Source of the DNA: Flavobacteriales bacterium | GTDB lineage: Bacteria > Bacteroidota > Bacteroidia > Flavobacteriales > BACL11 | Assembly: GCA_002697505.1 (NCBI GenBank) | Contig: NZWA01000089.1 | Span: forward strand, 1-40,997 | Direction of reading: 5' to 3' | DNA length: 40,997 nt | Part shown: positions 961 through 30,580 of the stretch, in pieces | Position numbering within the stretch: the first letter of the stretch is position 1 | How the letters are laid out: every line of letters starts with the position of its first letter | Translations under genes and position numbers: made by a program | The notes under the pieces: generated by a model | The model's input: the letters and a program-made list of their open reading frames with translations, nothing else | Databases searched by the model: none | What the model was told of the DNA's origin: nothing

Positions 961-1037
961 AGGTTTCACATACCCTGGCAGAAGGCACACCAGAATAAAA
1001 ATGTGCTGTTCACAAGTAAACAAACAAGGAGATGATT

Positions 1038-3767
1038 ATGAAATATCGTAATCTAATCGCATCAATGGTATTGATGACAGGATTGTTCGCACAATCTATT
1101 GTTGGAACTATCGTTGATGTTGACTCAAATCCACTTGAGGGAGCTAATGTCGTAGTTCTCGGAACAGATTTAGGTGGAGTATCAGATGAAACTGGTGCTT
1201 TTTCTATTAATGTTTCCGAGGGAACCTATGATGTAGTGGCTTCTTTCATTGGTTACTCTTCAATAACTAAATCAGTAGTTGTTGAGGGTGTATCTACATT
1301 AGAATTCGTATTGGATTTTGATGTGGTTTCCTTATCAGATGTTGAGGTGTTAGCATCTCGTGCATCTGAAACAACACCTGTGGCATACACTAATGTTAGT
1401 AAAGAAGAAATGGAAGTTCGTCTTGGTTCACAAGATATTCCAATGATTCTTAACACAACACCAAGTGTTTATGCTACTCAACAAGGTGGTGGTGCGGGTG
1501 ACGCTCGTATCAACATTCGTGGTTTCAATCAAAGAAATGTTGCAGTGATGATTAATGGTGTTCCCCAAAATGATATGGAGAACGGATGGGTCTATTGGTC
1601 TAATTGGGATGGAGTAGGAGATGCTACTTCTTCAATTCAGGTTCAAAGAGGTCTATCAGCTGTTAATTTGGCAACACCTTCTATTGGTGGAACTATGAAT
1701 ATCATTACCGACCCAACATCTTTTGAAAAGGGTGGGAAGTTCAAACAAGAAGCTGGTGATGGTGGTTTTCTTAAAACTACTTTCAACTATAATACTGGTC
1801 TTTTACTTAATGACAAGTTAGCTTTGAGTGGAACTATTGTTCGTAAAACTGGTGATGGAATCATTGATGGAACTTGGACTGATGCATGGGCATACTACTT
1901 TGGTGGTAGTTATGCCGTGAGTGAAGACCAAAGGTTTGAATTATACGCCATCGGTGCTCCACAACGACATGGACAAAATCTATATAAACAGAACATCGCA
2001 ACTTATTCACAAGAGTTAGCAGGTAGTGTTGATGGATATGACACTACAGCTTTTTCAGAAGGTAATAAGTTTGAGACTGAAGCTGGTAGATTGTTTAATC
2101 AAAATGTCGCACCTATTGACCCATCATATACTGGTCAACAATATTGGTATATGTATGGTGCAAGAACAACTAATAGATTCAACAAGAACTTCTTGAACGA
2201 AAGAGAGAACTTCTTCCATAAACCATTAGTGAATTTAAATCACTTCTTAACTATCAATGATAAAACAAGATTAAGTTCTGTTTTATATTGGAGTGGTGGT
2301 TCTGGTGGTGGTACTGGTACATATGGTAGTGTATCAAGAACACCAGCAGTTGAAGGAGAAAGATGGTATGCAAGTTCACCATGGGCTTGGGATTGGAATG
2401 CAGAGATTGCACAAAATTCCGATAACATTGATGAGAACTTCTCTACCACAGAAAATCGTTCAACAGGTATCCTTCGTAATTCTATTAATCGTCAGAACAC
2501 ATATGGTTTGATTTCTAAATTAAACTATGAGTTGAATGACAACTTAGAACTACAAGTTGGATTAGATTGGAGAACTGCTCGTATAGAACACGCTCGTGAA
2601 GTTCGTGATTTATTGGGTGGAGATTACTATGTTGATTATGCAGACGATAACTTTGAAGAAGGTAAAGTCGTGAGACTCGGTGACGAGATTGCATATCACA
2701 ACGAAACAACCGTAGATTGGTTAGGTGGATTCGTTCAAGGTAATTATACTACAGAAAAACTAAACCTATATGGTATGGGTGGAGTTTCTTCTATTGAGTA
2801 TTCTTATCAAGACCATTTCACTATTGCAGATGAAGTAATTACTGCAGACCCAATCACAACTTACCAAGTTAAAGGTGGTGCATTATATAATGTAAATGAG
2901 AACCTTGGAGTATTCATCAATAGTGGATATGTCCAAAAGGCTCCTATCTTAGATAATGTTATCACTTATGATGGAGTAGTTGCAACAGACCCAGACAATG
3001 AGAAATTCTTACATAATGAGTTTGGTGCAAACTTCGGTACACAAAAACTTGGAGTTAGAGTTAGTGCATACAATACTGATTGGCAAGATAGAAACCTTAC
3101 AAAATCTGTACAAACAGGTCAAGGTTCATCAGGTGATACTGATGTTATCTTCCTAAAAGGTGTAAATCAGAAACACCAAGGTCTTGAGATTGAAACTAAG
3201 ATTCAACCAAATGATATGGTAGAACTTGACTTAATCGCAAGTTTTGGTAATTGGAAATTTGATGGTGATGCCGATGGTACTTACCAAGAAAATGAGTACA
3301 ATGATGAAGGCCAAGTGATTGGTTATCAGACTACTGATTATGCATATGCACTTGATGGATTATATGTTGGTGATATGCCACAGACTGCCTATATTTTAGG
3401 TGTTACTCTTAAACCAATTAAAGGTTTGAGATTACAGGCACTATACAAAACATATGATAAAAACTATTCTGATTGGAGTCCAGACGCAAGAGAGATTGAA
3501 GATGGAGTCGCAGATAGAAGTCAAGTATGGGAAGCCCCAGGTTACTCAAAACTTGACTTACACGCATCATATAAACTTCCTATCAAGGGATACGACATTT
3601 CTTTAAATGCTCATGTATTCAACGCACTTGATGAAGTATTTGTACAAGATGCAGTTGATAATAGTAAATACAATGGGTTCGGTGATAAACTTCACTTGGC
3701 ACATAATGCAGAAGTATTCTTGGGTACACCAAGATATGCAAACATTGGAGTTTCTATTAACTTCTAA
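1038..3767 (+). CDS. TonB-dependent outer-membrane receptor with N-terminal CarboxypepD_reg-like domain (Bacteroidota-style architecture)
   Basis: Signal peptide MKYRNLIASMVLMTGLFA/QS. Beta-sandwich segment IVGTIVDVDSNPLEGANVVVLG...GYSSITKSVVV. Plug motifs (RINIRGFNQRNVAVMINGVPQND, SIQVQRG). Long Gly/Tyr/Asn-rich barrel ending ...GVSINF, a terminal-Phe OMP signature. AAGGAG at 1026-1031 favours ATG 1038 over ATG 1032. Confidence 0.85.
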   Translation: MKYRNLIASMVLMTGLFAQSIVGTIVDVDSNPLEGANVVVLGTDLGGVSDETGAFSINVSEGTYDVVASFIGYSSITKSVVVEGVSTLEFVLDFDVVSLSDVEVLASRASETTPVAYTNVSKEEMEVRLGSQDIPMILNTTPSVYATQQGGGAGDARINIRGFNQRNVAVMINGVPQNDMENGWVYWSNWDGVGDATSSIQVQRGLSAVNLATPSIGGTMNIITDPTSFEKGGKFKQEAGDGGFLKTTFNYNTGLLLNDKLALSGTIVRKTGDGIIDGTWTDAWAYYFGGSYAVSEDQRFELYAIGAPQRHGQNLYKQNIATYSQELAGSVDGYDTTAFSEGNKFETEAGRLFNQNVAPIDPSYTGQQYWYMYGARTTNRFNKNFLNERENFFHKPLVNLNHFLTINDKTRLSSVLYWSGGSGGGTGTYGSVSRTPAVEGERWYASSPWAWDWNAEIAQNSDNIDENFSTTENRSTGILRNSINRQNTYGLISKLNYELNDNLELQVGLDWRTARIEHAREVRDLLGGDYYVDYADDNFEEGKVVRLGDEIAYHNETTVDWLGGFVQGNYTTEKLNLYGMGGVSSIEYSYQDHFTIADEVITADPITTYQVKGGALYNVNENLGVFINSGYVQKAPILDNVITYDGVVATDPDNEKFLHNEFGANFGTQKLGVRVSAYNTDWQDRNLTKSVQTGQGSSGDTDVIFLKGVNQKHQGLEIETKIQPNDMVELDLIASFGNWKFDGDADGTYQENEYNDEGQVIGYQTTDYAYALDGLYVGDMPQTAYILGVTLKPIKGLRLQALYKTYDKNYSDWSPDAREIEDGVADRSQVWEAPGYSKLDLHASYKLPIKGYDISLNAHVFNALDEVFVQDAVDNSKYNGFGDKLHLAHNAEVFLGTPRYANIGVSINF

Positions 3768-7617: not shown

Positions 7618-8837
7618 TGTATTTATCGTACTTTGACAAATTCTATGATATGGAACCTTATCTTTACATAGATGAGGTTGAGTGGGAGTATATCAAAAAC
7701 ACCTTTGATAAACAAGATGTAAGAGAAAGTCTTGCAAAGGTTGCGATGTCTTACCCACCACCATACATGGATATATCTGAGAAAGATGCATTAAAACAAC
7801 TTCAGAAACTAAAAGGAATGAGACATAATGAAATTTTAGTTGAAGGAGAGTGGTTTGCACGAGAAGGTACAGAGTACAGATATGATTTAACTTTTGAAGG
7901 TAAACAACAATACTTCAAAAGAAATAATACAGGTAATGATTCAAGTAATTATTTTCAACAAAAGAATAGGTGGAGTGTTGATGGTACAATTGCACCAGGC
8001 CCACATAGAACATGGGAAAGTCATAAGTTTATGACAACATTAATTGGGTCTGCATACTCTCTAAAGTTACCTAAGATTGATAAGAGTGCATTTCGTGTAA
8101 TGATTGGATTGAGAAAATATATTTGTTCTCAATTCAAACCAAATGTTGCAAAGGTATTGTATGATAAATTAGAGAGTAAAAGTATCTTAGACTTTAGTGC
8201 GGGTTGGGGTGATAGACTTGCAGGATTCTATGCAAGTGAAACAGGTGAGTCTTATCTTGGGATAGACCCACGAAAAGAAAATCATCCCATCTATGAAGAA
8301 CAGAAACAATTCTATGAAAAACATAGAACTATGTTTGAGGTTGATAAAAAGAGTATGTTTGTAGAGTATCCTGCAGAGGACTTTGAATATCAAAAGAATA
8401 TGTATGATACCGTATTTACATCACCACCTTACTTTAGTGTTGAGAGATATAGTTATGATGACACTCAGAGTTGGGTAAGATATAAAGATATTGATACATG
8501 GAATACTCAGTTCTTACAAAAAACATTAGAAAAAATATGGCCTTCAATCAAAAGAGGTGGATATTTATTAGTGAACATTGCAGATGTATTTGCACGAACA
8601 GGTGGACAGAGAAACATGGTAGAGATATGTAATCCTATGAATAATTTCTTAAGTACATTCCACGATTCAGAATATAAAGGTTGTATTGGAATGGAGATGG
8701 CAAAGAGACCTAATAGTGGTGGTGCAGGAATGGCACGAGAGACAGATGAAAGGTTTCAAGACTCTACAATACAAAGAGCAGAGGAAACTAAGGATAAAAG
8801 ATTTTGTGAACCAATTTGGATTTGGAGAAAGTTATAA
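7617..8837 (+). CDS. SAM-dependent methyltransferase with SPPY motif (candidate orphan N6-adenine/N4-cytosine DNA methyltransferase)
   Basis: Motif I-like ILDFSAGWGDRLAG is followed about 75 aa later by motif IV-like VFTSPPYF, then GGYLLVNIADV. A long N-terminal region (~180 aa) has unknown function. Confidence 0.55.
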   Translation: MYLSYFDKFYDMEPYLYIDEVEWEYIKNTFDKQDVRESLAKVAMSYPPPYMDISEKDALKQLQKLKGMRHNEILVEGEWFAREGTEYRYDLTFEGKQQYFKRNNTGNDSSNYFQQKNRWSVDGTIAPGPHRTWESHKFMTTLIGSAYSLKLPKIDKSAFRVMIGLRKYICSQFKPNVAKVLYDKLESKSILDFSAGWGDRLAGFYASETGESYLGIDPRKENHPIYEEQKQFYEKHRTMFEVDKKSMFVEYPAEDFEYQKNMYDTVFTSPPYFSVERYSYDDTQSWVRYKDIDTWNTQFLQKTLEKIWPSIKRGGYLLVNIADVFARTGGQRNMVEICNPMNNFLSTFHDSEYKGCIGMEMAKRPNSGGAGMARETDERFQDSTIQRAEETKDKRFCEPIWIWRKL

Positions 8838-9760
8838 TGGATGAAATTAAAAATTCCCTATGGGTAGAAAAGTACCGACCTACAAGTCTTGACACTTATA
8901 TAGGTAATGAACACCTAAAGAGTAAGGTCAAGTTATATCTTGAGAGTGGAGATTTACCACACCTTCTATTGTTTGGTAGGGCTGGTACAGGTAAAACCAC
9001 TCTCGCTAAGTTACTCGTCAATAACATTGAATGTGATTATCTATACATCAATGCATCTGATGAGAGAAAACTTGAAATGGTAAGAGACAAGGTAAAAAAC
9101 TTTGCCTCTACTATTGGGTTTTCAAATATGAAAGTTGTGATTCTTGATGAGGCAGATTACATTACACCTGCATCACAGGCCGCACTTCGTAATCTTATGG
9201 AGACATTTAGTAAACATTGTAGGTTTATCTTAACTTGTAATTATGTTGAGAGAATCATTGACCCAATACAATCAAGGTGTCAATCATTTCAGATTATTCC
9301 ACCTGATAGAAAACAAGTTGCAGTACATCTAAGTGATATCCTACAGAAAGAAAAGGTTAATGCAAAGGTTGATGATATTGTAACAATAGTTAATAGTGGG
9401 TTTCCTGATTTAAGAAGAGTAATTAATGGTGCACAAAGACAAGTTGTAGATGGTGAGTTGATTATTGATGAGGGAATGAGTATACAAAACGACTATAAAG
9501 TAAAGGTATTAGAAATACTTAAGACACAAGATAAGAAAAACTCATTCAAGAATATAAGACAAGTACTTGCAGATTCAAAGGTAACAGACTTCTCAGACTT
9601 ATTTAGATTATTATTTGATACCGTGGATGATTGGGGTAAAGGTCATGTTGCAGAATGTATATTAGCATTGAGTCAGTATCAACAGAGTGATGCAGTAGTG
9701 GTAGATAAAGAGATAAATATCATGGCAATGTTTATAGAAATATTGGGAGTTATAAAATAG
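8837..9760 (+). CDS. Clamp loader AAA+ ATPase subunit (T4 gp44 / RFC small-subunit-like)
   Basis: LWVEKYRP RFC box, Walker A GRAGTGKTT, Walker B VVILDEAD, and a SRC motif (IQSRCQSF). ATG 8837 overlaps the upstream stop (TAATG). The track start at 8816 is an in-frame alternative. Confidence 0.9.
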   Translation: MDEIKNSLWVEKYRPTSLDTYIGNEHLKSKVKLYLESGDLPHLLLFGRAGTGKTTLAKLLVNNIECDYLYINASDERKLEMVRDKVKNFASTIGFSNMKVVILDEADYITPASQAALRNLMETFSKHCRFILTCNYVERIIDPIQSRCQSFQIIPPDRKQVAVHLSDILQKEKVNAKVDDIVTIVNSGFPDLRRVINGAQRQVVDGELIIDEGMSIQNDYKVKVLEILKTQDKKNSFKNIRQVLADSKVTDFSDLFRLLFDTVDDWGKGHVAECILALSQYQQSDAVVVDKEINIMAMFIEILGVIK

Positions 9761-11001
9761 TGTATGACTATTTAAGAGAAATTCCACCATCTTTTAAACA
9801 TGAATATGATAATTTAGTTAAAAATGATATACAGATAGAAGATTCGGTAAAATACCAACTTGTTATATTGGCATATAAAGAAGAAAATCTTATAGGTGAG
9901 TGTATAGAGTCTCTGATAAACCAAATTGCTTCTCCTGATGAGTTTGAAGTGTTGATTATAAATAATTGTTCTACTGAACAAGAATTTGATAATACTGAAT
10001 TAATAGTTAAAGAAAAATTAGATAAATATAAACACAATAATATACATTTAATAAATGTAAAATTTCCAAAAGAAATTGTAAGTTCTTCTTTGGCGGCAAA
10101 ATATGGTATGGACTTTGCATTATATAGGTGGAAAGATTATGTAGACTTCAACAATGGAATAGTTGCATTTTTTGGTGCAGATAATGTATTTGAAAACCAT
10201 TTTGTTTCAGAAGTATTGAAGACTTTCAACAATCCATCAAAGTATGATAATCCATATCAGTTGTATCCAATAGGGTTAGGTGAAGATAAGATAGATATTT
10301 TAATAACACATTGTGATGGTAACTATAAGTTTTCAAGTTTTGAGAATATAATTGATATTTCAGTTCTCAAACCTTATATAAATAAGATAGAAACTATGAA
10401 TGAGTTATTGGGAAAGTGGTATTATGAAAATTTTGATATAGTTTGGGGAGTAAAAAAAGAAAAGAAAGTAAATTTGGACGAAAGATTAATTTATAGACCT
10501 GATGGAAGTCCTGTTTGGCCTAAAACATTTAGGGCATCTGCATATAATGATTTGGGTGGTGTTGAGATTCAGGCACAAGAAGAACAGGCAATAATAATCA
10601 AAGCAGTGATTAATAACTATGTTGTAAAATTTAATGATTTAACAAACTTTACTCATATACAAAGGTTAGAAAAACCAAGAGTTCCTGATGGTAGTTTTAC
10701 ACAAGTGTTGAACGATAGTTTTCAGGCACACATAGATAAAAAAGAATTACAAGTTTATAAACTTGACTATTGGACAATGAGGAACAACATTGAGAAATAT
10801 TTTTATGAAAAAAAATTCTATGGTGATTGGAGACCAAAGTTTTTTTCAGAACAAGACTTAGATAAAATATTAAAAGAGTCAGGAGAATCATATTTATATT
10901 TTAAGAATAAGTTTATCCATCAGTTTCAAGATGAAATAAAAAAGAATTATAGAAAGACAAGCATTAATAATGTTATTAATGACATAAAGAAGAAGTTATA
11001 G
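9760..11001 (+). CDS. Divergent GT2-like (GT-A fold) protein with substituted Asp positions
   Basis: GTG start overlaps the gp44 stop. QLVILAYKEENLIGECIESLINQ...EVLIINNCST and IVAFFGADNVFENHF parallel the GT2 pattern (IPAYNEE...vvDDgStD / flDaDd), but with D-to-N/G replacements. Confidence 0.35.
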   Translation: MYDYLREIPPSFKHEYDNLVKNDIQIEDSVKYQLVILAYKEENLIGECIESLINQIASPDEFEVLIINNCSTEQEFDNTELIVKEKLDKYKHNNIHLINVKFPKEIVSSSLAAKYGMDFALYRWKDYVDFNNGIVAFFGADNVFENHFVSEVLKTFNNPSKYDNPYQLYPIGLGEDKIDILITHCDGNYKFSSFENIIDISVLKPYINKIETMNELLGKWYYENFDIVWGVKKEKKVNLDERLIYRPDGSPVWPKTFRASAYNDLGGVEIQAQEEQAIIIKAVINNYVVKFNDLTNFTHIQRLEKPRVPDGSFTQVLNDSFQAHIDKKELQVYKLDYWTMRNNIEKYFYEKKFYGDWRPKFFSEQDLDKILKESGESYLYFKNKFIHQFQDEIKKNYRKTSINNVINDIKKKL

Positions 11002-11011
11002 GAGTAACGAA

Positions 11012-11242
11012 ATGAATGACGAAAGACAATATCAAGAACCATTAGACATATCAAAGGCAGATACGATTCAATGTGAAGAGTGTGGAAACGCATCCTTTAT
11101 ACAATCATTTTTCTTAAAGAGAGTATCAGCATTGATGAGTCCAAATGGTAAAGAGGCAATCATACCAATCCAAGTATTTGCTTGTGGTAATTGTGGAACA
11201 ATACCAAAGAACATGATGAGTCAAATTCAACCGAGTGAGTAA
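11012..11242 (+). CDS. Small zinc-ribbon protein
   Basis: CEECG ... CGNCG pairs in 76 aa. Confidence 0.5.
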   Translation: MNDERQYQEPLDISKADTIQCEECGNASFIQSFFLKRVSALMSPNGKEAIIPIQVFACGNCGTIPKNMMSQIQPSE

Positions 11243-12651
11243 TGTATACTAAAGTTGGAGATGGACTACAAGTAGTAAGTGGTGACATAGTTAAGAGTTT
11301 AGTTGGTTTAGAGAATCTAACATACAAGATGTCAGAAGAATTCAACTCTGAAAGACTATGGACACCATCTCATCTTTCCATGGATAACGCCTACAAGACA
11401 GGATATATGGAATCATTCTCACATCAGGCATCTATAATTAATTCATACCATGGTGAAGAAAAAGGAATGTGTTCACCTACAGGATGTTATCATTGTTATA
11501 GTTTCTTAAAAGATAAAAGTGTTACAGATAAATCTTATGTAATGACAAGTAAATGTACACGAATAGAAGAAGAGTGTAATGATTTAGAAAGAATGTTTAA
11601 CTTCACTATATCAGAGATAGTGTTTGTTGGTACTGAGAAATATTGTGAGGATAATTTAAATAAGGCAATGACTTTAACATCACAAATGTTAGACCAACTT
11701 GGTATCAAATATTTTTATGAAGTTGCATCAGACCCATTCTTTGGTGATAAATCAGAGTTAAAAAGAAAAGTACAAATCAATAGTGGTTCTAAGATTGAGA
11801 TTAGAGCATGGATTCCTAACGAAGATAGACATGTTGCAATAGGTTCATTTAATCTACATGGTAGAAAGTTTGTTGATAAATTTAATATACAAGACTCAGA
11901 GATGACTGCATGTTTTGGTTGGGGATTAGAAAGATTTGTAGATGTTGTAAGTAAGTATGACAAAACCATAGATGAAACCAAAATCAACTTTAACTTCAAT
12001 ACTGATAACACTTTTATACCTGAAGTTAGAAAAAATGTAATTGATGGTAATGATGGTTGGTTATTGAGAGGTCAGACTTATTGGTTTGGTAGAAAACCTA
12101 TACATGAATATGAAATCCAAACACCAGATATTGGTGAGGTTGTCTATGAAGACATTGATACACTTGAACAACTTGATGGGTGGACATGGGAAATTCTACA
12201 AGGTCTCAAAGAATGGGACAGATTAAATATGGATTGGATTACCATAGAGACAAGAAAAACTTGGTTATGGGATTTAGAAACTGCAAAGAAAAGAATAAAA
12301 GATGGACACAATTTGTGTGCAATGTTTCACGATGGTAAAATGATACAATGGAATTGGTGGTTTATGGGTGAATTTACTTTTTATGACCACGAGTGGAATA
12401 TTGATATGAACTTACCTAAAGACCATTCTTATGGTGGATATTGGGCATGTTTACCTAAATATAGAACTTCAAGAAAACATGGTAAACTGATAGAACATTT
12501 CTACACTTATATTACAAACTATCTTATTAGAAAGAATATAAAATATGACTTGGCATATGTTGATGGTTGGAACAACAAGGCAATCAGTATACATAAGAAG
12601 ATGGGATATGTGGGTTACAATTGGATGGAAAATGAAAACTTTCTCAAATAA
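11242..12651 (+). CDS. Fusion: class II aminoacyl-tRNA-synthetase-like amino-acid ligase core (N-term ~240 aa) plus GNAT-like acyltransferase domain (C-term)
   Basis: N-terminal half: SPTGCYHCY, KCTRIEE (motif 2-like), FNFTISEIVFVG, ASDPFF, and VAIGSFNLHGRKFVDKFNI...CFGWGLERFV (motif 3-like GxGxxR). This matches seryl-tRNA-synthetase-like amino acid:carrier-protein ligases. C-terminal half: GGYWACLPKYR ... NNKAISIHKKMGY is GNAT-like. Confidence 0.5.
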   Translation: MYTKVGDGLQVVSGDIVKSLVGLENLTYKMSEEFNSERLWTPSHLSMDNAYKTGYMESFSHQASIINSYHGEEKGMCSPTGCYHCYSFLKDKSVTDKSYVMTSKCTRIEEECNDLERMFNFTISEIVFVGTEKYCEDNLNKAMTLTSQMLDQLGIKYFYEVASDPFFGDKSELKRKVQINSGSKIEIRAWIPNEDRHVAIGSFNLHGRKFVDKFNIQDSEMTACFGWGLERFVDVVSKYDKTIDETKINFNFNTDNTFIPEVRKNVIDGNDGWLLRGQTYWFGRKPIHEYEIQTPDIGEVVYEDIDTLEQLDGWTWEILQGLKEWDRLNMDWITIETRKTWLWDLETAKKRIKDGHNLCAMFHDGKMIQWNWWFMGEFTFYDHEWNIDMNLPKDHSYGGYWACLPKYRTSRKHGKLIEHFYTYITNYLIRKNIKYDLAYVDGWNNKAISIHKKMGYVGYNWMENENFLK

Positions 12652-12666
12652 TCAATATTTATAGAT

Positions 12667-14088
12667 ATGAACGATTCACAAAGACAAGCTTACGCAAATT
12701 TATTAAAAGAAAAAAGTTTACAGGTAGGAAATCTGTTTACTGGTAGTGCCTATTGGGATACTGAACATGAAGGTATGATATATGCCATGGATTGGATACC
12801 ACAAAGTGGTTCAATAAAACTATTAGAAATGAACACTAACATAGGATTAAGTGGTAGGATGAAACCATACTTTGATTTTAGTGAATTAGTAAGTCATATT
12901 ACAAGTTCTGGTCATACTACATGTACTTATCATGAAGACTATCTAAATTTCAATATAGAACCACAAAGAGTTGAAGACACTTTAGATATTTTTAAACAAC
13001 AACTTAGTTCAAGTTTATCATCTTCAGGATGTACATTTACACATGAATATAATCTATGGGATGAGGTTATACCAACACCATCTTCAACACATTATGTATT
13101 AAGACAAGGACATTCAAATTATCATAATGTTGATATATTATGTGAGAACAAAACTATATTTCGTAATTTTATAACAGGTAGTTTAGGTGAAGATTTCTTC
13201 CCTGCATTTGGTAGTAATATTTCATCGTCATTTAGTAATCCAACAAATGTACCTGATGTTGTTATCAAAGACCCAACTAAAGATATGGGTGTAGGAGTGT
13301 CTTTTACAGACTTTACAAGTGATAGAAATCAAATATATAATAATCATAATTATGTAGAACAATATATAGAACCTGAAATAGATAATAGTAGATATAGATT
13401 ATTTAGAAGTATCATATTGATTGGTAGTGGTAGTGTTAAATATTTGATAAAAAATCCTACTTATACAATTAACTATAGAAAGTTTGGACAACCAAGTGGT
13501 TCAGTTACAATTGGTTCACAAACCACTAATATTTATGATTATAATAATGTTAGAATATGGCAAACAGGACATTTTGAAGGTAACACACCAGTATCAATGT
13601 CTGATGGTTCGGTAAAAACGATTGGTAGTGTAAGTGCAGGTGAAGTTGTTAAGAGTGTAATAGTTGATAACTATCCAAAAAGAGATAATAGTTTTATTTC
13701 GTCAACAACTAATGTAAGTTGGCCTCAATATATACTTGATAAAGGTAATTGGACAGGTTCAATTGGTGAGTTGAGTGAATCAACAAGTTCAGTCAATAGT
13801 GTTCCACAAGTATATTCATGGGGATATTATGAATTAAATGGTTCTACAAAAGTTAATCCTGAAGACTCTATTATGGTTTATGATAATTCAAAATATCAAT
13901 TCAAACCAATGAGAGACATTAAAGTTAACGATGTTTTTGTTACAAAAGGATTTGTTACACAATCAGTATCATCTATAAATTTAGTGACTTCTGAATCTAT
14001 ATTTTATTCATTAGATTTAGAAACAGAAGATAGATATTTTGCAGGTGATGATACTAATTCGGTTATAACTTCCGATAGTTATTGGTAG
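12667..14088 (+). CDS. ATP-grasp-like protein with a C-terminal degenerate Hint (intein-like) domain
   Basis: KLLEMNTNIGLS (an E-x-N Mg site) and VVIKDPTKDMGVGVSF...YVEQYIEP resemble ATP-grasp blocks, but in unusual order. The C-terminal ~170 aa reads GNTPVSMSDGSVKTIGSVSAGEVV ... IKVNDVFVT ... IFYSLDLETEDRYFAG. This follows Hint block order but lacks Cys1, TxxH and the terminal HN. Confidence 0.4.
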   Translation: MNDSQRQAYANLLKEKSLQVGNLFTGSAYWDTEHEGMIYAMDWIPQSGSIKLLEMNTNIGLSGRMKPYFDFSELVSHITSSGHTTCTYHEDYLNFNIEPQRVEDTLDIFKQQLSSSLSSSGCTFTHEYNLWDEVIPTPSSTHYVLRQGHSNYHNVDILCENKTIFRNFITGSLGEDFFPAFGSNISSSFSNPTNVPDVVIKDPTKDMGVGVSFTDFTSDRNQIYNNHNYVEQYIEPEIDNSRYRLFRSIILIGSGSVKYLIKNPTYTINYRKFGQPSGSVTIGSQTTNIYDYNNVRIWQTGHFEGNTPVSMSDGSVKTIGSVSAGEVVKSVIVDNYPKRDNSFISSTTNVSWPQYILDKGNWTGSIGELSESTSSVNSVPQVYSWGYYELNGSTKVNPEDSIMVYDNSKYQFKPMRDIKVNDVFVTKGFVTQSVSSINLVTSESIFYSLDLETEDRYFAGDDTNSVITSDSYW

Positions 14089-14091
14089 GGA

Positions 14092-14379
14092 ATGAGTTCT
14101 TACTTAGTCGGAAATGTTATAATTAAAGATTCTTCTGAATACAGAAAGTATGAGAGAAGAATATTTCGTTATTTAAAAAAACATAATGGTAAATTACTTG
14201 TGTATGATGATAATCCAACATCAGTGCAAGGTAATATAGATGGTAGGTTATTGATTATGGAATTTCCAAATAAAAAAAGTGCATTAGAATTTTGGAATGA
14301 TGAAGATTATATAAAGATGTCGGAGAAATACAGATACCATTGTAGTGAAGTACAATTCGTAACTATAATAGGAGATTAG
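14092..14379 (+). CDS. DUF1330-family protein (dimeric alpha/beta-barrel)
   Basis: 95 aa. IKDSSEYRKYERRIFRYLKKHNGKLLVYDD...LLIMEFPNKKSALEFWNDEDY fits the DUF1330 pattern remembered from bacterial homologues. Confidence 0.5.
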   Translation: MSSYLVGNVIIKDSSEYRKYERRIFRYLKKHNGKLLVYDDNPTSVQGNIDGRLLIMEFPNKKSALEFWNDEDYIKMSEKYRYHCSEVQFVTIIGD

Positions 14380-14380
14380 T

Positions 14381-14872
14381 ATGTATGTATTAGAACACAA
14401 GGAGATTCCATTTAGTAGAATGGAAGTTGTAAAAGAAGATACACCAGAGTTAGATATTTTTTATGAACCTGATATGAAAAACTTTGAATACTATGATTCT
14501 GATGGAACACCAATAGGAATGTATATTATTTACAGAAATGATAAAAAAAATGTTGTTTGTGGTAGGAACTATTATATTTATAAACAACAGAGAACTAAAG
14601 GTTGGGGTTTAAATTGTATACTATCTTGTATCAATTATTCCTTTCAATTATATCCAGAGATTGATATCTTTTGTTGGTCTACTCATGTAGGTAATAAAGT
14701 TATGGACAGAATATGTTCAAAGATATATGAAGAAACAAGGACAGAAACCAATAATCCAAACATATTTGGTTTCAATGAACCACCACCATCTGAGTTACAT
14801 TCGGTTACAAGAAAATATATGGAAGAGTTTAATAAAAAATATCCAAAGGGTTTTAAAAGATTTAGAATATGA
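14381..14872 (+). CDS. GNAT-family N-acetyltransferase-like protein
   Basis: YKQQRTKGWGLNCIL matches GNAT motif A (Q/R-x-x-G-x-G/A). The size of 163 aa is typical. Confidence 0.4.
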   Translation: MYVLEHKEIPFSRMEVVKEDTPELDIFYEPDMKNFEYYDSDGTPIGMYIIYRNDKKNVVCGRNYYIYKQQRTKGWGLNCILSCINYSFQLYPEIDIFCWSTHVGNKVMDRICSKIYEETRTETNNPNIFGFNEPPPSELHSVTRKYMEEFNKKYPKGFKRFRI

Positions 14873-15303
14873 GTAAAGTTAAAGGTTTATTTGACCATGT
14901 AAAACAAATCACAAATGTACAGAGTCCTACATATTGGGATACATTAAGTGAGGGTGATAAAAAGACATGGAGTAATTACATGATTCACAGATTTCTTAGT
15001 ATGAAATCAGAGTGGATTCAATTGGTAAATGAAGTACAAAAGTATTGGGAGTTGGCTCCTAAGAATGTGTATCAGTTTTATATTGATGTACTACCACGAG
15101 GTAGAACTTTCCTTAAATACACAAAGTCAAAACATAAGTCAAAAGTAAATCCATGGGTTATGGAACACTTGACCGATTATTTTGAATGTAGTTCAAAAGA
15201 AGTAGATGATTACTTGGAGATATTAACACCACAACAAGTAAAGACAATCATCATGAAGTATGGTGTAGATGATAAACAACTAAAAACAATATGGAGTAAA
15301 TAA
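14869..15303 (+). CDS. Clamp loader small subunit (T4 gp62-like)
   Basis: WSNYMIHRFLS aligns with T4 YSKFMVENALS, DVLPRGRTFLKYTK with AVPRGKRYGKWAK, and VMEHLTDYFECSSKEVDDYLEIL with IIKLLAKRYQVNTNDAINYKSIL. Alignment by eye to T4 gp62. Confidence 0.55.
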   Translation: MSKVKGLFDHVKQITNVQSPTYWDTLSEGDKKTWSNYMIHRFLSMKSEWIQLVNEVQKYWELAPKNVYQFYIDVLPRGRTFLKYTKSKHKSKVNPWVMEHLTDYFECSSKEVDDYLEILTPQQVKTIIMKYGVDDKQLKTIWSK

Positions 15304-15898: not shown

Positions 15899-15923
15899 AA
15901 CATATGATAAATTGGAGAATAAT

Positions 15924-16310
15924 ATGAAAGTTATCAAGGATACGCCTAAGAGTAACTCAAGTAATGAGTATGTGGATGTTATAGAGTATATGGAAACAAA
16001 ATATCCACAGATGACATCAGAGTTTAAAAAAATACAACAAGACCAATATGAGTTGTTCTTAAAAAAACAACATGATTACGGCCCACAAAACATTGCAGTT
16101 GGTACTGCACTAAAAAATGATGAGGACAAAAGATTATCGTTGATGGGTATTTGGTTTAGGATTAATGATAAAGTAGAGAGAATCAAAACTCTTATTATGA
16201 GAGGTGACGATGGTTCGTTAGAGAATGAGGGTTTGGTAGATAGTTATTCAGATATCTCAAACTATGGAGTGATGGCACAAGTAGTCGCGAGAGGTAAATG
16301 GGCTAAGTAA
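15924..16310 (+). CDS. DUF1599 / MazG-like all-alpha nucleotide-pyrophosphohydrolase-fold protein
   Basis: KKQHDYGPQNIAVGT ... NDKVERIKTL ... DSYSDISNYGVMA fits the DUF1599 pattern. GGAG at 15914-15917 favours ATG 15924 over the TTG at 15912 used in the track. Confidence 0.5.
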   Translation: MKVIKDTPKSNSSNEYVDVIEYMETKYPQMTSEFKKIQQDQYELFLKKQHDYGPQNIAVGTALKNDEDKRLSLMGIWFRINDKVERIKTLIMRGDDGSLENEGLVDSYSDISNYGVMAQVVARGKWAK

Positions 16311-17140
16311 TGGACATTGGAATTGTTGGACAAGGTTATGTGGGAACTGCTATTAAAGTAGGATTTGAACCACACTATAATTACTTACATACTTATGATA
16401 AGTACGACCTTGCAAAATCTACCGTACCTAATTTAAAAGATTTAGTTGATAATTGTGAAGTTATATTCGTATGTGTTCCAACACCAATGAGAAAAGATGG
16501 GACTTGTTATACAGGTATTGTAGAAGAGGTAATTAGAGAGATTGATAGTTATGCAAATAATAATCCTATTGTAGTGATTAAGTCAACCGTACCACCAGGT
16601 ACTACTGATATTATGAACAAAAATTATTCAAATGTTACCGTAATATTTAATCCTGAGTTCTTAACAGAAGAAAACTTTTTGGAAGACTTTAAGAATCAGA
16701 AAAGAATTATATTGGGTGGTCAGAGAAATGGAACTAATAAACTCAGACAAATATACTCAAAGGTATTTCCACATGCAACTATAGTTAAGACTGGTAGTAA
16801 AACTGCAGAGATGGTAAAGTATTTTATCAACAACTTCTTGGCCACTAAAGTATCATTTGCAAATGAAATGTATAAGGTGTGTGAACAAGTAGATATTGAT
16901 TATGATAAAGTTGTAGAGTATGCAACTTATGATGAGAGATTAGGTAAATCCCATTGGGCAGTACCTGGTCCTGATGGTGACCATGGATTTGGTGGTCATT
17001 GTTTACCAAAAGATTTAAGTGCGATTATCAATCAATTTGAAACATATGGTTTATTAGAGGCAGTTGAAAGTGTCAATGACCAAGTTCGTGATAATCGTGA
17101 TTGGGAAGAAATGAAAGGAAGAGCAATAATAGATGAGTAG
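16310..17140 (+). CDS. UDP-glucose/GDP-mannose 6-dehydrogenase-family protein lacking the C-terminal UDP-binding domain
   Basis: GIVGQGYVGTA Rossmann motif, VIKSTVPPGTT, NPEFLTEENFLEDF, AEMVKYFINNFLATKVSFANEM, and the catalytic-Cys motif FGGHCLPKD. Only 276 aa, against ~390-450 aa for canonical enzymes. Confidence 0.75.
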   Translation: MDIGIVGQGYVGTAIKVGFEPHYNYLHTYDKYDLAKSTVPNLKDLVDNCEVIFVCVPTPMRKDGTCYTGIVEEVIREIDSYANNNPIVVIKSTVPPGTTDIMNKNYSNVTVIFNPEFLTEENFLEDFKNQKRIILGGQRNGTNKLRQIYSKVFPHATIVKTGSKTAEMVKYFINNFLATKVSFANEMYKVCEQVDIDYDKVVEYATYDERLGKSHWAVPGPDGDHGFGGHCLPKDLSAIINQFETYGLLEAVESVNDQVRDNRDWEEMKGRAIIDE

Positions 17141-17966
17141 AATTAGTTATAGTCAATTCAGTAAGTGGGATAAATGTCCATACACTTGGAAATTAGATTA
17201 TGTAGACAAGGTTAGTACATTCAAGGGAAACATATATACATTATTTGGTTCTGCAATCCATGAAACTATTCAGGCATACTTAGTTGCATATTATAATAAA
17301 ACTATCAAATATGCAGACTCACTTCCATTACATGATATTCTACAATACAGAATGGAAGAGAATTATAAGAAGTCCAAAGAACAACATGGTGATGATTTTG
17401 ATGTATCATTGGATGATATGAAAGAGTTCTTCCAAGATGGTATCAATATTATTGATGAGTTCTTGAAAAGAAAATCAAGTTACTTTCCTAAGAAAAGTAC
17501 TGAGTTAGTTGGTATTGAGTTAGACTTAAATCAGAACTTAGATAACAAACTAACTTTCATTGGATATATGGATGTGGTTATACATAATAAGAAAACAGGT
17601 CGTATTAAAATCATTGATATCAAAACCGCAACAATGGGTTGGAACAAATACATGAAGGCTGATAAGAACAAGACTAATCAGTTGTTATTGTACAAGAAGT
17701 TTTTTGCAGACCAAGCAGATATTCCAATTGATAAAATAGATGTTGAATATTTAATATTAAAGAGAAGATTATATGAGAATATAGTTTATCCACAAAAAAG
17801 AATACAAGTGTTTACACCAGCAAGTGGTAAACCAAGTATCAATAAGGTTATGACAAGATTAGACGAGTTTATGTCTGAGTGTTATGATGAAGATGGTAAC
17901 ATTATTGACAATGATTACCAAAAGTGTGAAAAACACAAAAAATGTAGATTATGTAAGGATTTATAA
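17133..17966 (+). CDS. PD-(D/E)XK nuclease, Cas4/RecB-like, with a putative 4-Cys cluster
   Basis: N-terminal Cys (WDKCPY), GYMDVV...IKIIDIKT (D...D-x-K), QLLLYKKFF (QxxxY), and C-terminal CEKHKKCRLC. Confidence 0.7.
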   Translation: MSRISYSQFSKWDKCPYTWKLDYVDKVSTFKGNIYTLFGSAIHETIQAYLVAYYNKTIKYADSLPLHDILQYRMEENYKKSKEQHGDDFDVSLDDMKEFFQDGINIIDEFLKRKSSYFPKKSTELVGIELDLNQNLDNKLTFIGYMDVVIHNKKTGRIKIIDIKTATMGWNKYMKADKNKTNQLLLYKKFFADQADIPIDKIDVEYLILKRRLYENIVYPQKRIQVFTPASGKPSINKVMTRLDEFMSECYDEDGNIIDNDYQKCEKHKKCRLCKDL

Positions 17967-18430
17967 TGATTACACCAACACTAAGGTTAAAGTTATCAGA
18001 TTTTATTGATAAACCATGGGAACAAGATGTATTAGATGAATTATCTAATGTAGGGAATGAAGTATTTCAAAACCAATTCACGATTTATTTTTGGTATGAT
18101 AGAAATACAGAATCAATAGATTTGAGTAGGTTAAGTCAGTTCTTGAAACAAAGAGAATCTGAAACTAACAAACCACAAAAAACTATTATCAGACCAGAGT
18201 TTTTTGATAAACAAGTATTTTTTATTTGGTACGATGTAATACCAAGAAGTATACACGAAAATAACCACATTCAATACTCAAGATTTAGTTGGTTGTATAG
18301 TGACCCAAGTACAGGTATAGTTGAAGGTATTAAAAACTTTAAAGAGACTTGGGAATTTGTATCAAGAGACCCAGAAAGAAGACCAAGGAAACAAAAAAGA
18401 AATGATGATGAAAGTAGCAATCATAGGTAG
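17966..18430 (+). CDS. Hypothetical protein with a basic C-terminal tail
   Basis: Coupled ORF (TAATG with the upstream gene). No recognisable motif. Confidence 0.5.
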   Translation: MITPTLRLKLSDFIDKPWEQDVLDELSNVGNEVFQNQFTIYFWYDRNTESIDLSRLSQFLKQRESETNKPQKTIIRPEFFDKQVFFIWYDVIPRSIHENNHIQYSRFSWLYSDPSTGIVEGIKNFKETWEFVSRDPERRPRKQKRNDDESSNHR

Positions 18431-18809
18431 TAGAAGTTATACTAACAAAAGAAAGATAAAAGATTTTGTCTTCAAGTTAAAAGAAAAAGTTGGAGATGAT
18501 TTAGTAATAGTAAGTGGTGGAGCAAAACAAGGTTCTGATAAATATGCAAAACAATATGCACTTGAGTTTGATATAAATTACTCAGAGTTCCCACCATACC
18601 ACGAACCACATAATCAACATTGTGTATATGGTGCATTTAGATACAATAAACAATATAGTGTTGGTAATTACCATAAAAGAAATAAAGACTTAGTAGAATA
18701 TAGTGACAATGTGGTTGCATTTTGTACAGAAGGTAAGATAACAGATGGTACAGGTTCTGCATTAAAGTCCGCAAAAAAAATAGATAAAAAAGTAATTATT
18801 TTTGATTAA
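18402..18809 (+). CDS. DUF2493 (SLOG-superfamily, DprA/Smf-like Rossmann) protein
   Basis: VAIIGSRSY...LVIVSGGAKQGSDKYAKQYA...KRNKDLVEYSDNVVAF...GTGSALKSAKK fits the DUF2493 pattern. The likely start is the ATGATGATG at 18402-18410 rather than the track start at 18321. Confidence 0.55.
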   Translation: MMMKVAIIGSRSYTNKRKIKDFVFKLKEKVGDDLVIVSGGAKQGSDKYAKQYALEFDINYSEFPPYHEPHNQHCVYGAFRYNKQYSVGNYHKRNKDLVEYSDNVVAFCTEGKITDGTGSALKSAKKIDKKVIIFD

Positions 18810-18836
18810 CAAGATACTTATATATATGTATATATA
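18802..18836 (+). promoter_or_regulatory. Class B intergenic motif, copy 2
   Basis: TTGATT is at 18802-18807 and TATATATGTATATATA at 18821-18836, 24 nt upstream of ATG 18860. Confidence 0.45.
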
Positions 18837-18859
18837 GATAACAAACAAAAGAGATTATT

Positions 18860-19054
18860 ATGAGTGAAGACAAATTGACATCAGTAAAAGTTATTGATGA
18901 GTTATATCGTAAGTTCAAAGAGAAATCCATCTCTGAAGACTTTTCATTACAGAAATTAGTAAATCGTAGTTTACATTTATTTGTATATGATGAAGATTTT
19001 AAGGATAAAGTATTAAAAAATAGTGACTTGGAAACAAGTGGTTCTAAATATTAA
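18860..19054 (+). CDS. Small protein, possibly a ribbon-helix-helix DNA-binding protein
   Basis: TSVKVIDELYRKFKEKS...SLQKLVNRSLHLFV has a beta-strand/helix/helix pattern typical of Arc/CopG-like proteins. Weak. Confidence 0.3.
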   Translation: MSEDKLTSVKVIDELYRKFKEKSISEDFSLQKLVNRSLHLFVYDEDFKDKVLKNSDLETSGSKY

Positions 19055-19064
19055 GAGGTTATAG

Positions 19065-20489
19065 ATGCAATTACCAAAACTACAGAAGGTTTCTTCAAGA
19101 CCAAAAAAGAAGAAAATCTTATTGTTGTCAGACGATTTAAGGATGCATAGTGGAGTCGGTACTATGTCAAGAGAAATAGTATTCGGAACTATTGATAAGT
19201 ACGATTGGGTTCAAGTAGGTGGTGCTATCAAACATCCTGATAATGGTAAGATAGTTGATATGAATCAGGCAGTTAGAGAAGAGACTGGTGTAGAGGATGC
19301 ATCATTAAAAATTTATCCAATTGATGGTTATGGAAATCAAGAGATAGTTAGACAACTATTGGTAGAAGAAAAACCAGATGCCATCCTACACTATACAGAC
19401 CCAAGATTTTGGATTTGGTTATATCAAATGGAACACGAGATAAGACAAAGTATTCCAATATTTTATTACAATATATGGGACAACCTACCTTATCCAACAT
19501 GGAATGAACCATTCTATGAGTCTTGTGATTTGATTATGAATATTTCAAAACAAACACATAACATAGTTCATAATGTATGTAAAAATAAACCAAGGACAGA
19601 TTGGGATTCAACTTATATACCACATGGTATCAATGAAAAACATTTTTATCCAATCGTTGATGAAGACGAAACATTCAAAGTAAATAAACTAAGAAATGAA
19701 TTGTTCCAAGGTACTGAAGTAGAATTTTGTATACTATTCATCAATAGAAATATCAGAAGAAAGATGACTTCAGATTTAATTATGGCATTCAAAACATTCG
19801 CAGATGGATTGACAGAAGAACAAAGAAAGAAAGTTGGATTTGTTTTACATACTGAACCAGTTGATAATAATGGAACAGACTTACCTGCAGTTATTGAAGA
19901 GTTATGTCCTGACTTAAACATTGTATTTTCAAAGGATAAACTTAATAATGAAGGAATGAATCAACTCTATAATGCAGTTGACCTTACCGTGAATATTGCA
20001 TCTAATGAAGGATTCGGATTAGGAACTTGTGAATCTCTAATGTGTGGAACACCAATCATAGTAAATGTTACAGGTGGACTACAAGACCAATGTGGGTTCA
20101 AATTTAGAGACCATTTCTTAACTTACAAAGATTATACTAAGATTGAATCACTACACGATTGGAGAAAGTGGGAAAACAATAAAGATTTAACATATGGTGA
20201 ATGGGTAAAACCAGTATGGCCGAGAACTCGTTCAGTTCAAGGTTCAGTACCAACACCATTTATTATGGATGATAGAGTTGATTGGGTTGATGTTGCAGAT
20301 GCATTAAGATATTGGTATGATAAATCACCAGAAGAGAGAAAAGAGGCAGGACTACTTGGACATGAATTCGTAACAGGTGATAATGGTATGATGAGTGCAA
20401 GACACATGAGTGAGTTATTCATAGACCACATGGAAACTGCGTTTGAAAAGTGGACACCAAGAAAAAGTTATGAGGTACATGAAGTATGA
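19065..20489 (+). CDS. Glycosyltransferase, GT-B fold (GT4-like)
   Basis: C-terminal NEGFGLGTCESLMCGTPIIVNVTGGLQDQ (EX7E-type motif). N-terminal KILLLSDD...GVGT. Confidence 0.75.
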   Translation: MQLPKLQKVSSRPKKKKILLLSDDLRMHSGVGTMSREIVFGTIDKYDWVQVGGAIKHPDNGKIVDMNQAVREETGVEDASLKIYPIDGYGNQEIVRQLLVEEKPDAILHYTDPRFWIWLYQMEHEIRQSIPIFYYNIWDNLPYPTWNEPFYESCDLIMNISKQTHNIVHNVCKNKPRTDWDSTYIPHGINEKHFYPIVDEDETFKVNKLRNELFQGTEVEFCILFINRNIRRKMTSDLIMAFKTFADGLTEEQRKKVGFVLHTEPVDNNGTDLPAVIEELCPDLNIVFSKDKLNNEGMNQLYNAVDLTVNIASNEGFGLGTCESLMCGTPIIVNVTGGLQDQCGFKFRDHFLTYKDYTKIESLHDWRKWENNKDLTYGEWVKPVWPRTRSVQGSVPTPFIMDDRVDWVDVADALRYWYDKSPEERKEAGLLGHEFVTGDNGMMSARHMSELFIDHMETAFEKWTPRKSYEVHEV

Positions 20490-21808: not shown

Positions 21809-22251
21809 TGTCAGAAGTAAAAACTAAATGTCCAAATTGTTTTTCTGAGAATCAATGTTTTGAAGAATCTACTGAACACTTTACTTCCTATATTTGTTTT
21901 AAATGTGGGTTCACAAGTAATTCATATTACAAAAATGATACAGAAGAACTAAAAAAGGCAGTTGAATCGTCAACACAATTGATGAATGAGATATCATTAT
22001 TTGACTATGATAGGAAAATAACTTGGTTTCCATCAGTATTAAACATGGGTAAGTTTGGAATAATTTATCCAGATGGTACTAAAAATAATTGGGTGTGGAA
22101 GTTTGCACAAGTAACTAAGTTAACAGAAGAAGAACAGAAAGACCCACAATATGAGGGACATGAACATAAATTAGATGTTGATAATGCACAATCATATGGA
22201 CAACATGAGTTTATGAATGCATGTAAAGATATGGGAATAATTAAAGAATGA
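21808..22251 (+). CDS. Hypothetical zinc-ribbon protein
   Basis: CPNCFSENQC ... CFKCGF near the N-terminus. Confidence 0.45.
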   Translation: MSEVKTKCPNCFSENQCFEESTEHFTSYICFKCGFTSNSYYKNDTEELKKAVESSTQLMNEISLFDYDRKITWFPSVLNMGKFGIIYPDGTKNNWVWKFAQVTKLTEEEQKDPQYEGHEHKLDVDNAQSYGQHEFMNACKDMGIIKE

Positions 22252-26885: not shown

Positions 26886-26894
26886 GAGATAAAG

Positions 26895-30579: not shown

Positions 30580-30580
30580 A

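Follow-up and report, generated by a model that had tools for sequence, protein, structure and literature searches.

An aminoacyl-tRNA synthetase-like core fused to a GNAT-fold domain in marine T4-like phages, probably an aminoacyl-transfer enzyme independent of tRNA

What would a bacteriophage do with a protein that joins an amino acid-activating core to an acyltransferase fold in a single chain? The question is raised by one open reading frame (ORF) in a 40,997-nucleotide stretch of DNA (contig NZWA01000089.1 of assembly GCA_002697505.1; the whole stretch is called the window here), which is AT-rich (~31% GC) and in which all the genes identified here lie on the forward strand. The genome that carries the fusion is that of an uncultured marine T4-like myovirus. 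The ORF runs from a single ATG to a stop codon and encodes 469 amino acids (coordinates are collected in Table 1). Its product is a new arrangement of two known parts, a core like that of the aminoacyl-tRNA synthetases (aaRSs) of class II and a domain of the GNAT fold, in one phage protein, and no description of this architecture was found in a literature search. The fusion is probably a bifunctional aminoacyl-transfer enzyme with no need for tRNA or a carrier protein, encoded in a phage island devoted to the decoration of glycans or small molecules.

A sequence-only reading of the window had already called both domains in one polypeptide. Sequence, profile and fold searches upheld both calls, and the five motifs quoted in that reading were all found in the product: KCTRIEE (residues 104 to 110), FNFTISEIVFVG (119 to 130), ASDPFF (162 to 167), FGWGLERFV (225 to 233) and NNKAISIHKKMGY (444 to 456). 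Is the fusion real? The sequence-only reading had allowed for two genes separated by a sequencing-error frameshift, an idea refuted by the uninterrupted two-domain ORF in independent assemblies. The ORF is continuous over 447 to 473 amino acids in independent assemblies from many samples, at 41 to 97% identity, and the catalytic residues are conserved in both halves across the homologues, so that a frameshift-merged pair of genes or a decaying pseudogene is hardly credible. In all, more than 20 contigs of marine viruses or metagenomes keep the fusion, at 41 to 97% identity. Nine protein clusters at 90% identity span the whole protein (41 to 88% identity, 450 to 473 amino acids), IMG/VR holds 13 contigs with a full-length ORF and a fourteenth with the start of the ORF only, and a deep profile search adds four further subfamily representatives. 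No fusion turned up in 185,579 bacterial and archaeal species genomes, in a pattern-based scan that could miss distant homologues. Among INPHARED phages there was no full-length homologue, the sole match being a canonical carrier-protein ligase in a faecal contig, and no viral protein in BFVD has both domains. The fusion is genuine and conserved, and to date phages are its sole known carriers. It appears to be maintained by selection, because it recurs at more than 20 loci and its N-terminal domain is more conserved than the rest of the protein.

The N-terminal part had been placed nearest to the truncated amino acid:[carrier protein] ligases (aa:CP ligases) of the seryl-tRNA synthetase (SerRS) type, and the PDB, NCBIfam and Foldseek matches bear this out. 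The Pfam model tRNA-synt_2b (PF00587) covers residues 76 to 235 above its gathering score (E=3.8e-8). The best solved sequence relative is PDB entry 3MEY, the glycine:[carrier protein] ligase Bll0957 of Bradyrhizobium (E=1.6e-13), followed by methanogen-type SerRS (E=1.8e-7), for which the alignments cover the catalytic core only and start at about residue 311 of a 527-amino-acid chain. The best NCBIfam model is NF005479, amino acid--[acyl-carrier-protein] ligase (E=9e-28). Because the match reaches 97 bits, a long way short of the equivalog cutoff of 357, the domain appears to be a divergent relative of the aa:CP ligases, not an orthologue. Foldseek with an AlphaFold model of the full-length protein (predicted local distance difference test [pLDDT] of 74.6, predicted template modelling score [pTM] of 0.60) again placed 3mey at the top (E=5e-15; template modelling [TM] score of 0.68 on the target), followed by the cores of SerRS, threonyl-tRNA synthetase and prolyl-tRNA synthetase, with class II matches spanning E=1e-12 to 5e-15. 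PF00587, Foldseek and the invariant arginines agree on membership of the class II aaRSs, with an antiparallel-sheet core and motifs 2 and 3. About 76 residues lie upstream of the core, and the model there is a short hairpin plus one helix with no tRNA-binding arm. The absence of such an arm, already claimed from the sequence, is upheld by the SerRS matches, confined as they are to the catalytic core.

To compare residues, a full-length Bll0957 orthologue from a Bradyrhizobium contig was aligned to the phage protein, and invariance was judged in 10 family members, down to 41% identity. The zinc-binding cysteines and the arginines of motifs 2 and 3 find their counterparts in Bll0957 and are invariant in the family (Table 1). 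We take C131, E176 and C279 of Bll0957 to be its zinc ligands, with C82, E125 and C224 as the phage equivalents. The Cys-Glu-Cys zinc site of the atypical-SerRS type thus seems to be retained in the phage core. Residues 168 to 178 align with what is presumably the carrier-protein-binding helix of Bll0957, reportedly described by Mocibob et al. in 2013, and four of them (K170, L173, K174 and Q178) do not vary among the phage proteins. Compared to Bll0957, the phage enzyme is without ~23 residues (~103 to 125) and ~30 N-terminal residues. Other phages encode stand-alone minimal class II cores of 185 to 222 amino acids, found in BFVD with TM scores to the N-terminal domain of at most 0.79 (A0A141HRQ2, A0A2I7SAH4, A0A6J5M2P2, K7QJG2 from Escherichia phage phAPEC8, and A0A292GIB7).

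The C-terminal domain follows a variable linker and is recognized by its predicted fold and by profile comparison; a PDB sequence search with the C-terminal half, as a single sequence or as a profile, gave nothing meaningful. In an AlphaFold model of residues 236 to 469 (pLDDT 76; model residues 45 to 234 mostly >70), the order of elements fits the beta1-alpha1-alpha2-beta2-4-alpha3-beta5-alpha4-beta6 of GNAT. GNAT-fold proteins make up all 50 of the 50 best Foldseek matches of this model, with VipF the best (E=8.5e-7) and tandem GNATs, glucosamine N-acetyltransferase and MshD among the others (the last two at E=1e-4 to 5e-4), at TM scores of only 0.4 to 0.5 for a model built from 10 sequences. 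A HMMER profile of the domain, searched against 1.84 billion representatives, retrieved only 36 proteins at E<=1e-3, those from outside the family being small GNATs of an ordinary kind with matches to Acetyltransf_1 or FR47. When aligned to such Acetyltransf_1 proteins, R408 coincides with the signature arginine of Q/RxxGxG/A and N444 falls in the beta5-alpha4 motif. The assignment to the GNAT fold looks sound on the predicted structure, and binding of coenzyme A (CoA) by the domain is plausible. Which GNATs are its nearest relatives? The sequence-only reading had pointed to the aminoacyl-tRNA-dependent Fem and L/F transferases, to which MprF may be added, but the nearest relatives are acyl-CoA-type GNATs instead. 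The domain is a single GNAT unit and not the tandem or DUF2156 type of FemXAB, L/F transferase and MprF, the FemAB and LPG_synthase_C models did not match it in a Pfam scan, and MprF aminoacyl-transferase domains enter the Foldseek list only from rank 41 down (E~8e-4).

Carboxylate activation and acyl transfer are very likely linked by the fusion within a single pathway, as the sequence-only reading had supposed, and independent support comes from sister phages in which the same GNAT domain stands behind an unrelated adenylating module. In protein P0018 (635 amino acids), the GNAT domain (E=1e-39) follows an AMP-binding module of the ANL superfamily whose nearest solved relatives are almost all acyl-CoA synthetases, and this architecture is present in four further metagenome contigs. 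Locus L108 carries, in order, the gene of a small zinc-ribbon protein, a short paralogue of a neighbouring gene called cluster 1 here, a flavin halogenase homologue, a FabH-like gene, the ANL-GNAT gene and later the clamp-loader gene gp62. Its zinc-ribbon and cluster 1 genes hardly differ from their counterparts in L021 and L022, in which the same slot is occupied by the aaRS-like-GNAT fusion. Two unrelated adenylating enzymes have therefore been exchanged before one GNAT in sister genomes, given the same GNAT, the same island slot and near-identical flanking genes. The two fusions have the partner-gene family in common as well, and differ in the superfamily of the adenylating module and in the halogenase homologue and FabH-like gene that lie alongside the ANL version. 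By the known chemistry of their families, the aaRS-like and ANL modules would share acyl-adenylate formation and transfer to a pantetheine thiol, and the GNAT would need an acyl thioester. The module swap is a clean natural experiment, and the intermediate it suggests is a thioester, possibly aminoacyl-CoA.

How could the two domains work together? The account we favour, if tentatively, is a relay: the ligase domain would load the amino acid as a thioester, probably onto CoA, and from there the GNAT domain would pass it to an amine, which probably belongs to an amino sugar. The zinc-bound core (C82/E125/C224) would use ATP to form the aminoacyl-adenylate of a small amino acid, as expected from its homology and intact catalytic residues. 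The aminoacyl group would then pass to a pantetheine-type thiol, most likely that of free CoA, giving aminoacyl-S-CoA as in the aa:CP ligases, which aminoacylate free CoA-SH to aa~S-CoA (PMC5370406). The GNAT domain would use this thioester as its acyl donor and move the aminoacyl group to an amine, with CoA being recycled, and the acceptor would most likely be a de-N-acetylated or 4-amino sugar supplied by the neighbouring sugar-nucleotide and glycosyltransferase genes. Similar donors have been proposed elsewhere: seryl- or glycyl-CoA together with an N-acetyltransferase for aminoacylation of a 4-amino sugar in gougerotin (PMC12835213), and glycyl-CoA for the phage GNAT Mom (PMC7824862). The sequence-only reading had the adenylate handed directly to the acceptor, but a thioester on CoA or pantetheine, or ligation followed by acetylation, would be more in line with the known activities of the parent families. 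We can imagine, with less assurance, a minimal amide-forming system without ribosome, tRNA or carrier protein, in which CoA shuttles the aminoacyl group and the adenylating module is interchangeable before a fixed GNAT. If this is true, aminoacyl-CoA would be a genuine biosynthetic intermediate, and the fusion might be a missing enzyme type for aminoacyl decoration of amino sugars on virions, on host glycans or in Mom-like hypermodified phage DNA.

Several points weigh against the relay. As a physiological intermediate, aminoacyl-CoA is not established, the aa:CP ligases act on CoA in an in vitro side reaction, and the amino acid, the thiol and the acceptor of the relay are all putative. None of the 10 family members is matched by any Pfam model over the C-terminal domain, even at E<=10; the signature glycines are out of register, with a 3- to 4-residue loop indel within the family; and the pTM of the full-length model is only 0.60. 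The conserved segment at residues 168 to 178 could mean a macromolecular partner, such as a host acyl carrier protein (ACP). Finally, the PIG-L deacetylase gene found beside some of the fusions fits the alternative considered next equally well.

Could the amino acid be ligated first and capped afterwards? By the logic of MshB, MshC and MshD, the aaRS-like domain would ligate an amino acid directly to the free amine of an amino sugar, amines being the acceptors of the aaRS paralogues MshC, AsnA and PoxA, and the GNAT domain would N-acetylate the new alpha-amino group from acetyl-CoA, in the manner of MshD, to yield an N-acetyl-aminoacyl sugar. Of the alternatives to the relay this is the strongest, and we regard it as possible but doubtful. 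Two subfamilies (L005, L006 and L020; L007 and L018) have a PIG-L (MshB-family) de-N-acetylase gene as the immediate neighbour of the fusion, the GNAT domain resembles MshD and glucosamine N-acetyltransferase in the structural search, and enzymes of consecutive steps are often fused into a single chain. Bacterial surface glycans commonly contain N-acetyl-aminoacyl amino sugars, whose enzymology is largely undescribed. Amine-acylating aaRS paralogues are known as well (PMC9437257; PMC2922099). However, for the nearest relatives of the N-terminal domain the acylated group is a thiol and not an amine, the sister ANL module is closest to CoA ligases, for which a relay is a simpler account than capping, and PIG-L is not in window-type islands. 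A thioester could also be carried by a protein, with the core loading a host ACP or peptidyl carrier protein, or an unrecognized phage carrier, from which the GNAT domain would take the aminoacyl group in the manner of SbzI. Such loading is the characterized activity of the closest family, the stretch matching the engineered Bll0957 helix is highly conserved, and carrier protein-dependent GNATs exist, SbzI accepting aminoacyl-carrier proteins (PMC11685415). Nevertheless, we consider this route rather unlikely, as canonical ligases have an adjoining carrier-protein gene, whereas no PP-binding carrier protein could be found in 48 scanned window proteins, in Pfam assignments computed beforehand for related loci or by phmmer when a genuine carrier protein was the query, and no phosphopantetheinyl transferase turned up in the window or related loci. 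The residues that the phage enzyme is without relative to Bll0957 also count against it, and fusion to a downstream transferase reduces the need for a diffusible protein carrier.

The acceptor itself may be questioned, since the same chemistry could act on phage DNA, at a Mom-like base or a sugar-modified base, or on a protein, and not on a free glycan precursor. T4-like phages glycosylate their own DNA, the fusion gene lies inside the replication module between gp44 and gp62, near a DUF1599 gene and a weak DNA-methylase-like gene, and one relative of cluster 1 carries a fused EVE domain, a type regarded as reading modified bases. Mom itself is a GNAT, with the proposed glycyl-CoA donor mentioned above (PMC7824862). 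We find this acceptor unlikely all the same: the enzymes encoded nearby resemble those of polysaccharide pathways or of protein glycosylation (UDP-sugar dehydrogenase, 4,6-dehydratase, CMP-sugar synthetase, Maf-like protein, sulfotransferases and Acatn/MFS), no hydroxymethylase or base-modifying enzyme was identified, and only one contig, of 933 bp, has the EVE fusion. Very unlikely, in our view, is a tRNA-dependent enzyme of the ErdS, LysX or Fem kind, in which the core would charge a tRNA and the GNAT domain would use the aminoacyl-tRNA. Known fusions of class II aaRSs to GNAT folds do work in this way, such as AspRS with an MprF-like domain and LysX (PMC9437257; PMC2922099), and MprF is among the weak structural matches. 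But the phage protein has neither an anticodon-binding domain nor an N-terminal tRNA arm, its closest relatives, the aa:CP ligases, have lost tRNA charging, no tRNA gene lies in the window, the transferase is one small GNAT and not a tandem DUF2156 or Fem domain, and the ANL variant cannot charge tRNA.

Table 1. Positions of the fusion, its parts and associated features (window coordinates unless a locus is named)
Feature	Coordinates	Strand	Basis or remark
Whole ORF, class II aaRS-like ligase plus GNAT-fold domain	11242..12651	+	ORF call; homologues in clusters and viral contigs
Class II aaRS catalytic core, aa:CP-ligase/atypical SerRS type, residues 1-235	11242..11946	+	PF00587, 3MEY, NF005479, Foldseek
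Cys82 (= Bll0957 Cys131), putative Zn ligand	11485..11487	+	Alignment, family conservation; invariant
Motif 2 KCTRIEE; R107/E109 = Bll0957 R159/E161	11551..11571	+	Alignment, family conservation; invariant
Glu125 (= Bll0957 Glu176), putative Zn ligand	11614..11616	+	Alignment, family conservation; invariant
Residues 168-178, GDKSELKRKVQ	11743..11775	+	Aligns to Bll0957 segment differing between native 3MEY and engineered 4H2W; low pLDDT
Cys224 (= Bll0957 Cys279), putative third Zn ligand, and motif 3 FGWGLERFV; R231 = R286	11911..11940	+	Alignment; invariant
Variable linker, residues 236-280	11947..12081	+	pLDDT <50 in places; poor conservation
Divergent GNAT-fold domain, residues ~281-469	12082..12648	+	Foldseek top 50 all GNAT; profile reaches Acetyltransf_1
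Beta4-alpha3 loop PKYRTSRKHGKL, GNAT motif A position	12454..12489	+	R408 invariant; Gly pattern of Q/RxxGxG/A not kept
Beta5-alpha4 segment DGWNNKAISIHKKMGY, GNAT motif B position	12562..12609	+	D441, G442, W443, N444, K453, Y456 invariant
Variable island between clamp-loader genes gp44 (8816-9760) and gp62 (14869-15303)	9760..14872	+	Annotation of window and loci
Zn-ribbon protein, 76 amino acids	11012-11242		Two CxxC pairs; highly conserved KRxSAxxSPxGxEAxxP loop
Cluster 1, 473 amino acids, unrecognized N-domain and Hint-like C-domain	12667..14088	+	Sole gene accompanying the fusion in every locus
ANL-GNAT fusion loci	L023 427-2334; L107 3164-5068; L108 5610-7514

In what surroundings does the fusion operate? 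It sits between gp44 and gp62 in all loci, and in nearly all of them it is the first island gene after the zinc-ribbon gene. In the window, the island runs in the order GT2 glycosyltransferase, the zinc-ribbon gene, which belongs to the backbone, the fusion, cluster 1, DUF1330 and a 163-amino-acid protein. A functional trio of zinc-ribbon protein, fusion and cluster 1, with the first as a LysW-like carrier or acceptor, was considered and rejected because the zinc-ribbon gene also lies between gp44 and gp62 in phages without the island, such as Microcystis phage Mel-JY01. The C-terminal tails of the zinc-ribbon proteins are not conserved. The protein is also encoded by an uncultured 484-kb phage and by Flavobacterium phage immuto, and it may be an unrecognized clamp-loader accessory.

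The N-domain of cluster 1 has no match in Pfam, NCBIfam, PHROG or PDB, profiles included. Its invariant residues are E54 and T57 (LLExNT), K162 and R166 (NKxxFR), P196, D197 and K201 (PDvvIK) and E231 (YxExYI), and the order of these motifs resembles that of an ATP-grasp enzyme with the Mg-binding ExN motif shifted to the N terminus; a circularly permuted ATP-grasp is our guess at the level of motifs. The C-terminal half resembles a Hint domain whose nucleophile position holds Thr, Ser or Cys, and the relatives P0061 to P0064 carry canonical Hint/intein domains. In P0058, which is encoded on the 933-bp contig, an EVE domain is joined to part of the cluster 1 N-domain. Cluster 1 is also found at L001 11372-12844 and L007 2862-4457, and short paralogues lie at L001 6852-7685 and L108 2772-3365.

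The 163-amino-acid protein of the window island (14381-14872) has only a weak GNAT match, and hhalign shows no relation to the GNAT domain of the fusion, so that a paralogous origin was rejected. We also discarded a 'cluster 12', a spurious merge of this protein with a mini-ANL enzyme through a fused ORF in L011; the phmmer matches of the cluster arose through the ANL part. A homologue of 150 amino acids, weakly GNAT-like, is paired with a 229-amino-acid mini-ANL enzyme that starts at TGSTGxPK, the two being separate adjacent genes in L009 (4532-5660), L013 and L015 and one ORF of 375 amino acids in L011 (12147-13274).

Other islands encode GT2, GT25, Gly_transf_sug, PIG-L deacetylase, DegT aminotransferase, sulfotransferases, an Acatn/MFS membrane protein, radical SAM enzymes, 2-oxoglutarate oxygenases and methyltransferases, and the PIG-L deacetylase, DegT aminotransferase and sulfotransferases adjoin the fusion in relatives. 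Beside the ANL-GNAT genes, and all between the zinc-ribbon gene and gp62, lie a homologue of flavin-dependent tryptophan halogenases (PrnA at E=4e-53, with cyanophage VirX1 among the matches), a FabH/KAS III homologue, DUF7936 and a radical SAM gene.

Downstream of the island, at 16310-34314, the window holds a large set of sugar-pathway genes interleaved with replication genes. They encode a UDP-Glc/GDP-Man (UDP-sugar) dehydrogenase, two GT1/GT4 and two more GT2 glycosyltransferases, an HpcH aldolase, a CMP-sugar-type cytidylyltransferase, a Maf/MptE-like protein, an NAD epimerase of the 4,6-dehydratase type, DUF2334 and a radical SAM/SPASM protein, and this set suggests that the phage makes a glycan with nonulosonic acid or a 6-deoxy-amino sugar. 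A 4Fe-4S LdpA-like protein is encoded in the same interval. Near the island lie DUF1330 (14092-14379), DUF1599, or 'nucleotide modification associated domain 1' (15912-16310), and a YspA/SLOG-family gene (18321-18809), of which the DUF1599 and YspA/SLOG families are linked to nucleotide or base modification. At the other end of the window, positions 1032-3767 encode a 911-amino-acid phage protein with CarboxypepD_reg and TonB-dependent-receptor Plug domains, that is, an N terminus like that of SusC/TonB receptors. This protein, unusual for a phage, is conserved upstream of the DNA polymerase in L005, L012 and L014, and it may hint at a Bacteroidota host or at receptor mimicry.

Why does such a fusion matter? 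Non-translational enzymes with an aaRS-like core are few, and each of them (MshC, PoxA, the aa:CP ligases and ErdS) revealed new chemistry. The physiological role of the aa:CP ligases themselves is not yet established, and the fusion could show the destination of the activated amino acid. A carrier-free fusion of the core to its presumed downstream transferase is a directly testable one-protein system, which also tests aminoacyl-CoA as a real intermediate, and the enzyme might explain how amino sugars acquire aminoacyl groups. The locus moreover exposes a rich island for glycan or small-molecule decoration in abundant marine T4-like phages.

Among known systems, the best match in both sequence and structure is the aa:CP ligases Bll0957 and Blr6284 of Bradyrhizobium and Atu2573 of Agrobacterium, reportedly described by Mocibob et al. 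in 2010 and 2013. They have in common with the phage core the truncated class II fold, the Cys/Glu/Cys zinc site, the residues of motifs 2 and 3, the lack of a tRNA-binding domain and a relationship to atypical methanogen-type SerRS. However, identity is only ~22%, and the GNAT domain at the C terminus of the phage enzyme is encoded in none of the cellular aa:CP ligase loci examined. By sequence comparison, the phage core would descend from the aa:CP ligase branch while departing from it in two features of the family, a carrier protein in the operon and the equivalog score. A Rosetta-stone comparison found neither the GNAT domain nor cluster 1 as separate genes in six aa:CP ligase loci of Bradyrhizobium and Rhodopseudomonas or in L106. 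The last of these (L106 4713-6208; MT835751.1, 'Bacteriophage sp.', human faeces) encodes a stand-alone aa:CP ligase of 377 amino acids, with an 86-amino-acid carrier protein (DSLG motif) directly downstream, followed by an uncharacterized protein of 518 amino acids; the record is unverified and may be bacterial.

The fungal ErdS (AspRS-DUF2156) and the mycobacterial LysX (LysRS-MprF) likewise combine, in one chain, an activating enzyme of class II with a transferase of the GNAT fold that serves a non-protein acceptor. They contain a complete aaRS with an anticodon-binding domain, work through aminoacyl-tRNA and end in a tandem DUF2156/MprF transferase, whereas the phage fusion has the catalytic core alone and a single divergent GNAT domain nearest the acyl-CoA type. 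GouK/GouJ of gougerotin and Mom are unfused and, as far as tested, unrelated in sequence, and both schemes are only proposals, but they have in common with the relay an aminoacyl-CoA donor used by a GNAT on an amine. The mycothiol enzymes are three separate proteins, with a class I (CysRS-like) MshC and a tandem GNAT in MshD, and nothing suggests a thiol product in the phage; yet MshB (PIG-L), MshC (an aaRS-like Cys ligase) and MshD (GNAT) form the same enzyme set acting on an amino sugar.

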